Shown here in pieces: positions 26,730 to 30,296 of a stretch of DNA of 64,000 nt (within the stretch, counting starts at the first letter, position 1; each line of letters begins with the position of its first letter). A program made the position numbers and the translations under genes. The stretch spans positions 32,001-96,000 of the IMG/VR virus record IMGVR_UViG_3300002307_000021. One strand, given 5' to 3'. A model generated the notes under the pieces. The model did not search any database, had not been told where the DNA came from, and saw only the letters and a program-made list of their open reading frames with translations. This DNA comes from a virus.

Positions 26730-27440
26730 TTACTTTTTCTTCGCCTTTTTCAATTCTGATTCGTACCACTCTTCTTCTGCTACGTAGATGTCATTAAAGT
26801 GTTCATCTAGGTTGCATTGTTCGTCAATTGGTTGAGGGATAGTAGCAAAGCCACGTTTAACCAGCATGCTAATTCCTGTACGACGATCACTTACATTACC
26901 ATCACCGTAGACCATACTACCAAACGGGAATGTAACTAGATCAAAAGTACCGTCCCATAACTTAGTGCGTAGTTCAATCATAAACTCACGACACCCATCA
27001 ATACTCATAGTATCGTGAAATACAATAATACCTGTTTCACTTAGTTGTGGATAGATAGCTAGAAAGTCATTTTTAATACCATCGTAACTATGACAGCCAT
27101 CAATAAATGCTAGGTCGATACGAGGATGTTTTATTTTAATTAATTCGTGGAATTCTAGAGTTTTACTGTCAATTTTAGTTAACTCAAAGTTTGCGTAGCC
27201 CTCTTTGCGTAAGCGTTCTTCGCAGGCTTCTTTACTTGACCAATGTTGGAATTGATTTTGTAAGCCGTGCGTGTCCCAAATATCATATCCATATACGAAT
27301 CCGTTTACACGAGCAGCGCCACGACATAAAAATGATGTGGTTTTAGCTTCTGCTACACCCACCTCTACTACCACTTTACATTGATTAAGATAAATTAATG
27401 CTTCTAAAAACGGACTATGTTCTTCTACAGTTACGGCCAT
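26730..27440 (-). CDS. class I SAM-dependent methyltransferase (Methyltransf_24-like)
   Basis: VEVGV, FIDGCHSY, VFHD; start at MAVTVEE with GGAG SD. Confidence 0.82.
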   Translation of the reverse strand: MAVTVEEHSPFLEALIYLNQCKVVVEVGVAEAKTTSFLCRGAARVNGFVYGYDIWDTHGLQNQFQHWSSKEACEERLRKEGYANFELTKIDSKTLEFHELIKIKHPRIDLAFIDGCHSYDGIKNDFLAIYPQLSETGIIVFHDTMSIDGCREFMIELRTKLWDGTFDLVTFPFGSMVYGDGNVSDRRTGISMLVKRGFATIPQPIDEQCNLDEHFNDIYVAEEEWYESELKKAKKK

Positions 27441-27457
27441 CACAACTCCATTGAATA

Positions 27458-27506
27458 AAAAAGGCAAGTACTAAAATAGTATACTTGCCTTTTTATTTAA
27501 CGTCAA
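27458..27506 (-). terminator. intrinsic terminator overlapped by a sigma70 promoter
   Basis: 13-bp inverted repeat 27458-27470/27482-27494 with U-tract; TTGACG-17-TATACT at 27506-27478. Confidence 0.75.
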
Positions 27507-27520
27507 CTAGACTGGTAAGA

Positions 27521-27802
27521 TTAATTTCTCTTACGGCGTAGTGGACGATTGGGATCGTTATTGTCCACTACTGTGGTCTGATTTACAGTTTCGTTAACTA
27601 CAACTTCTTGCGCAGGTGTATCAGGTGCAGGTGTATCATACGCGGTATTATCTGCTGGCGGAGTATATGTATCTACCGGCACTGGCTGTTGAGGCTGTGC
27701 CCAAGTTTGTTGCGTAGTATACCCCTGTGTGGGTTGTGGTGCACTAACCCATTCAGGTTGTGCTGGAACACTTACTTCTGGGGCTGTTCCGGACCCCTCT
27801 AT
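27521..27802 (-). CDS. -1 frame C-terminal extension of the holin (93 aa, P/Q/T-rich, basic end)
   Basis: Stop-free, ATG-less frame IEGSGTAPEV...DPNRPLRRKRN* entered through slippery site GGGAAAA. Confidence 0.75.
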   Translation of the reverse strand: MEGSGTAPEVSVPAQPEWVSAPQPTQGYTTQQTWAQPQQPVPVDTYTPPADNTAYDTPAPDTPAQEVVVNETVNQTTVVDNNDPNRPLRRKRN

Positions 27803-27808
27803 TTTCCC
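27765..27808 (-). promoter_or_regulatory. programmed -1 frameshift signal (slippery heptamer plus H-type pseudoknot)
   Basis: G GGA AAA, spacer TAGA, then GGGGT-CC-GGAACA-GCCCC-AGAAGTAAG-TGTTCC. Confidence 0.8.
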
Positions 27809-28080
27809 GCTTCAATCTCTGCTACTTTTTCTTTACCACGACTAAATGCCGCAATACCTAAGATAGCACCCATGGACAAGTGATATAGTCCACCACCTTG
27901 TAGGGTTAACGGTGTCCAGCTAGTAACTGCCTGTCCTGGATTGTAATACTGTAAGATGTTGAATAAGATTGGGCCTACGATAAAGTCAAACCAAATTGTA
28001 GCCATATATGTAATAGCCATTAACGGACGCCATTTGCTGGTCATCCAATCTTCTGTTTTCTTTTCTGCTGCTGTTGTCAT
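27799..28080 (-). CDS. holin (GTA 3TM holin-like)
   Basis: WRP motif, hydrophobic helices, RGKEK end, lysis-cassette position; late promoter AATAAATA 28111-28118. Confidence 0.75.
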   Translation of the reverse strand: MTTAAEKKTEDWMTSKWRPLMAITYMATIWFDFIVGPILFNILQYYNPGQAVTSWTPLTLQGGGLYHLSMGAILGIAAFSRGKEKVAEIEAGK

Positions 28081-28126
28081 GTCTATGCTCCTAGTGCTTT
28101 ATTATAATAGTATTTATTGCTTTTGG

Positions 28127-28333
28127 TTAAATTGCACCTGCCACTGCAATCAAGCCATTGATCAACTGATTGAGCTGTGCCTTCATTTCTAGATCGTCCG
28201 CAGTAGCACTGATAACTTTAGTATGCTGGATGTCTTCTAGTAATTCTTTGTATTCACTTGCTGATAATTTACCAGCTTTAAATTGTGATTCTAATTCTTT
28301 TATTTCTTCTACTACGTTTTGTGTATTACTCAT
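28127..28333 (-). CDS. small helical protein in lysis cassette
   Basis: 68 aa, ATGA overlap with upstream gene. Confidence 0.75.
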   Translation of the reverse strand: MSNTQNVVEEIKELESQFKAGKLSASEYKELLEDIQHTKVISATADDLEMKAQLNQLINGLIAVAGAI

Positions 28334-28731
28334 CTTGGTTTCGCTCCTATCGCTGTTTGAATTGTTGTTGCGTTTTTCTCAATAGATTTAAATTTAAGAT
28401 TACAGTAGCTTGGGCTTACTGGTTCTAAGCTATCGTATTTTTCGCTTAGGCCTTTGACAATATCAGCTAGTTCGGCAGTCATTTTAGCTGCTTCTTCGTT
28501 GTGCGGTATTGAAGCTGAATAGTTTTTTAATTCAAGTGACTTAGACCATAGACTATCTACTACGGGTACAACTTCTGGACTGCCACATTTTTCTACACCA
28601 ATACTAGCAGTAGTTCTAATGTTATTAGCTAATAGGTATTCGTTGTTGTCAAAGCGTGCCATGCGATAGATATCAACAATTGCACAGCCATTTAATAAGA
28701 CTAATAAAGATAGAACTAGTAGTTTTTTCAT
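28330..28731 (-). CDS. lipoprotein
   Basis: Lipobox LLNG-C after hydrophobic signal. Confidence 0.8.
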   Translation of the reverse strand: MKKLLVLSLLVLLNGCAIVDIYRMARFDNNEYLLANNIRTTASIGVEKCGSPEVVPVVDSLWSKSLELKNYSASIPHNEEAAKMTAELADIVKGLSEKYDSLEPVSPSYCNLKFKSIEKNATTIQTAIGAKPR

Positions 28732-28991
28732 TATTTTATTTCCTCAAATATTTGTTTTTGTTTAGTATACCATTCGTTCCAACGCATGTTATATTCTTGG
28801 CATTCATGATATTGACTATAATTATCTACTACCGTACCAATAACCTCACTTAACTTTTCTGTATAAGGAGTTTGTTGTAGATCAACGCAGGGTTTTTGTA
28901 GTTCAGCAGGTACCTCGGGCCACTTGGCTTTAACTGGGACTAGTTCACATCCTGCAAGTAGTACTATGAATAGAATTGGAATATATTTCAT
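28731..28991 (-). CDS. o-spanin (Rz1-like lipoprotein)
   Basis: Lipobox LAG-C; PxxPAELQKPC; NY..Y.EC. Confidence 0.8.
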   Translation of the reverse strand: MKYIPILFIVLLAGCELVPVKAKWPEVPAELQKPCVDLQQTPYTEKLSEVIGTVVDNYSQYHECQEYNMRWNEWYTKQKQIFEEIK

Positions 28992-29452
28992 TGAGTTAGC
29001 CCTTTAGTTACAACTGCCGCTTCACCGCGGGCAGAACTATTTAAAATATCAATAGCTTCTTTAGGAACTTTACACTCAGCATTGATAACTGTTTCATGTT
29101 CTTTAATAACTTCTTTAGTTTTATACTGCACTTCTTTAATCTTTTTAATCTTAGTTACAATTTTAGTTTTGATATCAGTATTAACCACTTTAGATTTAGC
29201 TTCTGCTGCATCTACTTTCTTTTGCATTTCTGCAACACGGTCACGCCATTGCATTTCAAATTCGTAGCCACCCTTCATATAAAGGCCAGCGCCAAGGGCT
29301 AGTATACCCACTACTTGAATGATTAAACGCCATTGTTCAAAAAACTTAAAACGGAATATAAAGCCAAATAGTGTACACGCTATACCTGTGTAGAATATAA
29401 GATTTACAAAGTATATCAGCATACTTGTTGGAAGTAATTGTAGTAGAAACAT
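28988..29452 (-). CDS. i-spanin (Rz-like)
   Basis: N-terminal TM segments, coiled coil, C-terminal Cys; lies between endolysin and o-spanin. Confidence 0.75.
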   Translation of the reverse strand: MFLLQLLPTSMLIYFVNLIFYTGIACTLFGFIFRFKFFEQWRLIIQVVGILALGAGLYMKGGYEFEMQWRDRVAEMQKKVDAAEAKSKVVNTDIKTKIVTKIKKIKEVQYKTKEVIKEHETVINAECKVPKEAIDILNSSARGEAAVVTKGLTQ

Positions 29453-29453
29453 A

Positions 29454-30296
29454 TTATTGTCCTAACATTTTTTTGATAGTGTTTGGTCCTACAATGCCGT
29501 CTGCAACCAAGCCATGTGCTGTTTGCCATGCTTTAACTGCTTTTTCTGTGCCCGGTCCGTACTTGCCGTCAGGTGTTTGTCCTAGGGCAGTTTGAACTGC
29601 TTTAACTGTGTCGTTGTTACTACCTAAACGCACTGTTACGTATTCTGTACTTGTAGTTATTGGGGCCGACTCTGGTATAGCACCACCACTTAGTAACTGT
29701 TTAGCCTTAGTGTAATGTGCTGTACGATCTTCTAAGCCAATTGTACCACCATTGATCTTTTTAGTCATTTTAACAATGTCGTCTGCATCACATACAGCAT
29801 TTAAGCCGTTTGTTTTCCAAAACCAACACGCTGATTCAATAGCACCATCTAGTGTTTCTAAGTCATGCACTGCTTCATCTAATGTCATACCAACGCTAGC
29901 GGCATACTTAGTATAGTTGTCTTTACCTGTAAGTTGAATAGCACCGCGTCCGCAGAACTTGTAGCCATCGCCACTTGATTCTGGACCATTGCCCATACGT
30001 CCACCATAGACCTTGTTAGCGATCTTTTCTGGGTTACGTGCATAACTAGCAGCACTAGCCGCATCTGGAAAGTATTTGTGGAAAATTTTAGTTAAACCAT
30101 CTGCTGAGTAGTTTAAGTTTTCTTTAAGAACAGTAAAGCCGTTTGATTCGTGTCCGCACTGTGCTAAAAAGCCAGCGGCACGATTAACTGTATTAATTTC
30201 GTATTTGGTAAATTGTTCTGTAAGAACCTCAGCTAGGTCTTGTGGATATTTGTACTGAGGATAAATTGCTTTGATTAGTGCTGCGCTTATTTGCAT
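29454..30296 (-). CDS. endolysin: GH19-type catalytic domain plus peptidoglycan-binding domain
   Basis: FLAQCGHES, ENLNYS, GRGAIQLTG, INGG; C-terminal DGKYGPGT..DGIVGPNT. Confidence 0.93.
   Translation of the reverse strand: MQISAALIKAIYPQYKYPQDLAEVLTEQFTKYEINTVNRAAGFLAQCGHESNGFTVLKENLNYSADGLTKIFHKYFPDAASAASYARNPEKIANKVYGGRMGNGPESSGDGYKFCGRGAIQLTGKDNYTKYAASVGMTLDEAVHDLETLDGAIESACWFWKTNGLNAVCDADDIVKMTKKINGGTIGLEDRTAHYTKAKQLLSGGAIPESAPITTSTEYVTVRLGSNNDTVKAVQTALGQTPDGKYGPGTEKAVKAWQTAHGLVADGIVGPNTIKKMLGQ

Follow-up and report, generated by a model that had tools for sequence, protein, structure and literature searches.

The window, by which the whole analysed stretch of 64,000 nucleotides is meant, belongs to an uncultivated phage represented by a 158-kb IMG/VR record with an estimated completeness of about 45%, a combination that implies a jumbo phage; it falls in a freshwater clade in which related contigs extend up to 372 kb. 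The minus strand of the window carries a lysis cassette that opens with an endolysin gene and has the gene of a small holin-like membrane protein as its last member (Table 1). The order of endolysin, spanin-like pair, lipoprotein, 68-aa gene and holin is conserved among relatives, and the linkage between endolysin and holin is retained, in varied arrangements, down to 51% identity. The N-terminal part of the 154-aa i-spanin-like protein (28988-29452, -), ahead of the coiled coil, contains two or three hydrophobic segments; this protein could itself be holin-like, in which case the cassette would encode more than one hole-former. Promoter-like elements are found at two points on the same strand. 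One of these (TTAACC-18-TATAAT, 10/12, 28101-28130) lies directly 5' of the ribosome-binding site of the holin gene, which may therefore have its own transcription, while the other (TTGACG-17-TATACT, 27478-27506) lies across the terminator region that separates the tail stop from the methyltransferase gene.

Table 1. Features of the lysis cassette and of the candidate recoding site at the end of the holin-like gene (coordinates of the window).
Feature	Position	Strand	Basis
Endolysin, GH19 + PG_binding_1, first gene of cassette	29454..30296	-	profile matches
Spanin-like pair	28731..29452	-	weak matches: phrog_456 E 0.001, LysC E 0.011
Spanin-like membrane/coiled-coil protein, 154 aa	28988..29452	-	
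Spanin-like lipoprotein, 86 aa, overlapping the 154-aa gene	28731..28991	-	
133-aa lipoprotein and 68-aa protein, between spanin-like genes and holin gene	28127..28731	-	order kept in relatives
Shine-Dalgarno AGGAG, 7 nt 5' of ATG	28088..28092	-	read from sequence
0-frame ORF, short isoform, 93 aa	27799..28080	-	ORF list, translation, profile matches, hydropathy
Slippery heptamer G_GGA_AAA, in frame, X_XXY_YYZ register	27802..27808	-	sequence; G_GGA_AAR in 55/55 distinct relatives
0-frame stop TAG abutting heptamer	27799-27801	-	sequence
Spacer TAGA, 4 nt (relatives: 4-5 nt)	27798..27801	-	sequence, relatives
H-type pseudoknot, whole	27765..27797	-	sequence and covariation
Pseudoknot stem 1, GGGGT/GCCCC	27797-27793 / 27784-27780	-	
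Pseudoknot loop 1, CC	27792-27791	-	
Pseudoknot stem 2, GGAACA/TGTTCC	27790-27785 / 27770-27765	-	
Pseudoknot loop 3, 9 nt, A-rich, AGAAGTAAG	27779-27771	-	
-1 extension, 93 codons + stop	27521..27802	-	frame entered at last A of heptamer
Intrinsic-terminator-like hairpin (10-bp stem, 11-nt loop, T-run)	27454..27491	-	read from sequence
Downstream methyltransferase gene	26730..27467	-	

The 93-aa product was matched to Pfam PF11351 (GTA_holin_3TM) with an E-value of 2.4e-5 and 25.3 bits, against a curated cut-off of 24.8, and to phrog_3427 “holin” with an E-value of 3.5e-7, while profile searches with this product returned no match to any other family. The PF11351 match spans positions 57-117 of the 123 in the profile, covering the last two transmembrane segments (TMs) only. 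The hydropathy of the protein agrees with this, displaying two hydrophobic segments (residues ~20-45 and 63-82) in place of the three that define the Pfam family, such that the protein corresponds to TM2-TM3 of the profile. Atlas neighbours also bear the holin name, and precomputed PF11351 assignments are present on many relatives. The protein's small size, its membrane segments and a gene position next to an endolysin within a lysis cassette are characteristic of the holin class. The AlphaFold model of a long relative (L004), in which the whole protein is encoded in one frame, contains two long helices and a disordered tail at a low pLDDT of 58. Close relatives retain Met13 (28042-28044, -, ...EDWMTSKWRP), whereas distant ones have Ile or Leu at this position; translation begun at this codon would yield a protein without the charged N-terminus. 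Dual starts of the lambda S type do not describe the pair of forms considered below, which differ at the C-terminus through recoding.

The 3' end of the short ORF reads GCG GGA AAA TAG, about 50 residues past TM1 and 13 past TM2. For this position an initial annotation had claimed an in-frame G GGA AAA on the minus strand followed by TAG, an H-type pseudoknot four nucleotides further on, and a -1 frame that stays open for 93 codons without an ATG, ends in RPLRRKRN and reaches up to the terminator. The ORF and heptamer were correct to the base, every stem and loop of the pseudoknot was recovered at the coordinates given, and the open frame was confirmed, running from 27802 to 27524 with its stop at 27523-27521. 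The long isoform is thus predicted to contain 186 residues. The terminator hairpin begins 30 nt past the tail stop, not directly after the short ORF, and the transcript therefore appears to extend through the tail; owing to its 11-nt loop, this hairpin is missed by a terminator scan with a loop limit of 8 nt.

Taken singly, several of these elements are modest. The heptamer by itself is unremarkable, with 14 copies in the 64-kb window against 11 expected. Folding of the single sequence gave z values of -0.9 to -3.4, mostly non-significant, with -8.6 kcal/mol for stem 1 and -6.6 kcal/mol for stem 2, and since nested folding of this kind is non-significant, the case for the structure rests on covariation. 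A search against Rfam returned no frameshift element, with only sub-threshold chance matches close to the terminator. With all five pairs of stem 1 formed, the window has a spacer of 4 nt, on the lower edge of the usual range of 5-8 nt or slightly below it. When the tail was shuffled, just 0.9% of trials left the frame open. It is the combination of elements and its conservation in 55 distinct relatives that is beyond chance.

Scans of IMG/VR and of JGI metagenomes yielded 160 related loci. Those with G_GGA_AAR in frame, a 0-frame stop soon after it and an open -1 frame are termed type A here, and comprise 67 loci, or 55 distinct genes, from many metagenomes and independent assemblies, with 79-92% protein identity to the window. 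The heptamer G_GGA_AAR, ending in AAA or AAG, is unchanged in all 55 genes, and the 0-frame stop follows immediately or one or three codons later. In every gene except one, the -1 frame remains free of stops over 62-93 codons. The codon preceding the heptamer may be GCG, TCG, CCG or ACG, encoding Ala, Ser, Pro or Thr, and its third base is nonetheless G throughout; the Gly codon within the heptamer is GGA, again in 55 of 55. At the remaining conserved codons for Gly, Ala, Pro and Thr in these genes, two to four different third bases are found. By this comparison, what is conserved in the heptamer is the nucleotide sequence, against synonymous drift, and not the encoded protein. No relative contains an extra A that would fuse the two frames.

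Two related sequences depart from this pattern. In the one exceptional type A gene (L109:1767-1838), GAA has become TAA in the tail frame four codons past the slip site and stem 2 is weakened to AAACA/TGTTT, while the remainder of the tail frame can still be read; this gene may be a natural short-only derivative that has recently lost the long form, or may reflect a sequencing error. In a 150-aa protein (P0035) on a JGI contig of 15.6 kb, the junction is read in the third frame (…AGERENNGVRNSPRSK…), apparently following an indel that destroyed the GGGAAAA site, and is probably a mutant or an assembly error. Tail-only queries against IMG/VR produced no additional loci. Among phage records, blastn matched no cultured relative and tblastn found distant homologues only (28-38% identity; Atu_ph07, Phosso and the PA5oct group), none of which has the slip site or an open -1 frame.

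The pseudoknot was aligned in 57 distinct sequences, and controls were provided by sliding the 3' partners 1-3 columns and by 500 shuffles. In the proposed pairs 95.5% of cells are paired, compared with 36-64% for the slid partners, and no shuffle attained the observed pairing or covariation score. Changes on both sides are observed in five of the six pairs of stem 2, which occurs as GGAACA/TGTTCC, GAAACA/TGTTTC, GGAGA/TCTCC, CGAAGA/TCTTCG, TGAAGA/TCTTCA, GAGGAC/GTCCTT, CGAGGG/CCTTCG and GGTGCTT/AAGCATC, while stem 1 closes with U-G, C-G, U-A or A-U. Several of the switches in stem 2 alter the residues encoded by both arms (Gly-Thr...Val-Pro versus Glu-Asp...Ser-Ser), an argument that selection acts on the RNA. 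The final two A's of loop 3 are invariant though they stand as the third base of nine different codons. Adenines placed in this manner would contact the minor groove of stem 1, as in other frameshift pseudoknots. Relatives that lack the slip motif also lack the pseudoknot, and are either plain long ORFs (L025, L030, L027, L143, L040 and others) or plain short ORFs (L046, L062, L066 and others). The pseudoknot is hence present only where the slip motif is present, indicating that the two act as one module confined to one clade. An upstream Shine-Dalgarno stimulator was considered and rejected: GGTGA occurs 3 nt upstream in some relatives and is absent from the window.

The peptide that a shift would add is conserved as well. 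The -1 products of type A genes have in common an N-terminal motif GTAPEVSVPxQPQW, part of which the pseudoknot itself encodes, followed by TQGYxTxQTWAQP, often by DFGSAPPAFGD, and by a terminal DPNRPLRR[KV]KK. Between these motifs lie linkers rich in Pro, Ala and Glu that vary in length, and every change in length preserves the frame. The tail of the window is 41-42% identical, with E-values of about 1e-10, to the C-terminal parts of two relatives in which it is encoded in frame (L004 and L019). In the window and its relatives no start codon lies 5' of the conserved N-terminal motif in the tail frame; reinitiation, readthrough and hopping were considered as routes to tail expression and rejected, given a tail in the -1 frame with no start codon nearby. 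On this comparative evidence the -1 frame is real coding sequence. The tail is rich in Pro, Gln and Thr, and in the window its first 84 positions contain 11 acidic and no basic residues, while the last nine contain five basic ones; disorder is predicted in the model of a relative. Tails of the wider family (proteins P0047-P0201) end in recurrent motifs, namely DP[ND]RPLRRKK, TPTRKIT, PPRRAK and PxPEL/DPIL/PEI, and such endings look like short docking peptides at the tips of disordered linkers.

A second arrangement around the same pseudoknot, absent from the initial annotation, was observed in related phages. The tail is in the 0 frame in 19 distinct genes of 170-195 aa, and about 40 such proteins are present in the protein collection. 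All 19 carry N_NNT_TTT_AR at the junction, as G_GGT_TTT_AAT in five, TCT/CCT_TTT_AGY in ten and GAT_TTT_AAY/AGT in four, and a -1 slip here would place TTT in the decoding frame with TAA or TAG immediately after it. The two-stem pseudoknot follows 4-5 nt past the motif. In this set alone 92.8% of cells are paired, as against 40-67% with slid partners, and six of ten pairs show double changes. The in-frame genes may thus mirror the window: standard translation would yield the long form, and frameshifting a short one of about 100 aa, a reading we favour by a little. It is held no more firmly because G_GGT_TTT is the only canonical heptamer among these junctions, because the Phe-Asn/Ser dipeptide could be conserved for reasons of the protein, and because in E. 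coli a U_UUU tetramer with a strong pseudoknot shifts within the range of active tetramers, 0.26-5.6%, and G_GG.U_UU.U stands outside the top class of heptamers (PMC4066793). A tree of the DNA of the TM domain (207 columns) was poorly resolved and gave no count of switches between the two arrangements.

Considered together, the conserved slip site and pseudoknot very probably allow one gene to give forms of 93 and 186 residues. The proposal of the initial annotation, a programmed -1 frameshift with short and long isoforms, is strongly supported by comparative sequence evidence: slip-site conservation, stem covariation, conserved coding in the -1 frame and tail homologues encoded in frame. The alignment of homologues that it had suggested as a check likewise upheld the heptamer (55/55), the stems (95.5% paired) and the openness of the -1 frame (54/55). 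In the process envisaged, most ribosomes would terminate at TAG and release the 93-aa protein. On G_GGA_AAA a fraction would move back by one base, with the compact H-type pseudoknot 4-5 nt downstream as stimulator, and translate 93 further codons, such that the 186-aa product would have the same membrane domain followed by a disordered acidic tail with a basic end. Stimulatory structures generally begin 5-8 nt downstream of the slip site, and heptamers of the class V_VV.A_AA.R, G_GG.A_AA.R among them, shift most efficiently in E. coli (PMC4066793); G_GGA_AAG has been characterised as highly shift-prone (PMC5009743). From the efficiency of this class, a substantial minority of ribosomes is expected to make the 186-aa form. 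To the whole account, that of a GTA_holin_3TM-family protein of a lysis cassette made in short and tailed forms by pseudoknot-stimulated -1 slippage, we assign a probability of roughly 0.82.

What the two forms do is less certain. The positive-inside rule predicts that both ends of the protein, and the tail with them, face the cytoplasm. Both forms may co-assemble through their common TM domain, and, by analogy with lambda S, the tailed form may modulate or delay the formation of membrane lesions in mixed oligomers. A timing role akin to that of holin and antiholin is accordingly proposed tentatively, at slightly below an even chance. The existence of short-only and long-only relatives implies that the two-form arrangement is optional and that no fixed ratio is universally required. 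A still wider picture, in which this freshwater clade of jumbo phages relies on frameshifting to fix the proportions of tail-less and tailed holin, uses both arrangements around one pseudoknot and employs recoding as a lysis clock, with a slip rate that perhaps senses membrane insertion or the state of the membrane, is speculative and, as a whole, less likely than not.

The main competitor accepts the frameshift and disputes the function: the tail might tether the protein to a partner or to the membrane surface, or the product might be an accessory membrane protein of the lysis cassette, not one half of a timing pair. This alternative is a serious minority possibility. The match to PF11351 is borderline, the 30 residues of the TM domain that are invariant among relatives are unusually many for a pore former, and the upstream 154-aa protein with its N-terminal hydrophobic segments could be the real holin. 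The Atu_ph07 and Phosso homologues are located away from the lysis genes, and the PA5oct homologue (L003, 212216-212542, 108 aa, 28% identity) is annotated as a virion structural protein, detected by ESI-MS/MS and encoded among structural genes, which conflicts with a pure holin role across the wider family; in view of that annotation, the name “holin” rests on family name and context. Against this stand the endolysin linkage, kept over wide divergence, and a small size and two-TM topology that suit holins, in the absence of a match to any other family.

The remaining alternatives dispute the frameshift itself. The tail could be a decaying, untranslated remnant of an in-frame extension, with the stem-loops serving mRNA stability or pausing. 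Long in-frame relatives do exist, and L109 combines a stop in the tail frame with a weakened stem 2; yet a frame that stays open as far as a conserved C-terminal motif, 62-93 codons away, in 54 of 55 type A genes, changes length without breaking frame, follows a heptamer frozen against synonymous drift and precedes the terminator makes this improbable. An even smaller chance attaches to slippage of RNA polymerase in place of the ribosome. Runs of A or T are used in this way by some bacterial and phage genes, but longer homopolymers than the three or four A's present here are needed, and a tandem X_XXY_YYZ with a pseudoknot at ribosome-entry distance is the signature of ribosomal shifting (PMC4066793). 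Least credible of all is an assembly or sequencing indel in the A-run that split a single 186-aa ORF. Homopolymer runs are error-prone, but this run is short, the same frames recur in the 55 distinct genes of many independent assemblies with both AAA and AAG, fusion by an additional A is not seen in relatives, and those with the tail in frame carry a different junction. Programmed ribosomal frameshifting is retained as the preferred reading.

Each element of the mechanism has a counterpart in known systems. As the initial annotation had recognised, the heptamer is of the lambda G/GT type. Lambda G/GT has the same heptamer (G_GGA_AAG) and a -1 shift that, shortly before a short ORF ends, leads into a longer product with a shared N-terminus; it is conserved within a gene family of dsDNA phages (PMC5009743). 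The lambda product is a tail assembly chaperone, whereas that of the window is a membrane protein of a holin family. In phage tail genes, a structured RNA element following the frameshift site has seldom been identified, and the window differs from these genes in the covarying pseudoknot after the site and in the 0-frame stop that abuts the heptamer. Signals of the IS3/IS911 type combine bacterial heptamers, including G_GG.A_AA.R, with a pseudoknot a few nucleotides downstream and a fusion product (PMC4066793). In the window, by contrast, no transposase is involved, and the pseudoknot is smaller (4-5 bp plus 5-7 bp) and wholly contained in the coding sequence of the extension. The in-frame relatives resemble E. 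coli dnaX, in which a -1 slip onto an immediate stop yields truncated gamma beside full-length tau; dnaX uses A_AAA_AAG, an upstream Shine-Dalgarno and a hairpin, while the relatives have N_NNU_UUU and a pseudoknot, and their frameshifting is inferred. Lambda S105 and S107 are likewise both made from one holin gene and have the membrane domain in common, with a difference at one charged end. There the difference is two N-terminal residues from alternative initiation, and here it would be a 93-residue C-terminal extension from recoding, with a function that we infer. Cytoplasmic charges at the C-terminus of lambda S tune the timing of lysis. In alphavirus 6K/TF, too, a -1 frameshift occurs in the gene of a small membrane protein soon after the TM segments, and events in the nascent chain can raise -1 frameshifting (PMC12776465); alphaviruses are eukaryotic RNA viruses, and a similar coupling to membrane insertion in a phage holin is pure speculation.

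Full-text literature search combining holin with frameshifting returned frameshifts in other genes only (tail genes and, going by titles and abstracts, capsid, transposase or similar genes), and the PRFect paper and the accessible part of the Atkins 2016 review make no mention of holins. The mechanism is classical; within the literature searched, its use in a holin-family gene, together with the apparent two-way arrangement, is new. Gene callers annotate the 93-aa ORF only, and approximately 280 nt are left “empty” in dozens of phage contigs.

Burst size is decided by holin timing, a question with a long history in phage biology. A holin and its inhibitor are known to arise from dual starts or from separate genes. 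If the interpretation is true, a pair set by frameshifting would be a third, stoichiometric route, and pseudoknot-dependent -1 frameshifting would extend beyond the usual phage cases of tail chaperones and capsid proteins, and beyond insertion sequences. The apparent flip between extension and truncation among orthologues with one pseudoknot would furthermore constitute a natural series for the evolution of recoding signals.
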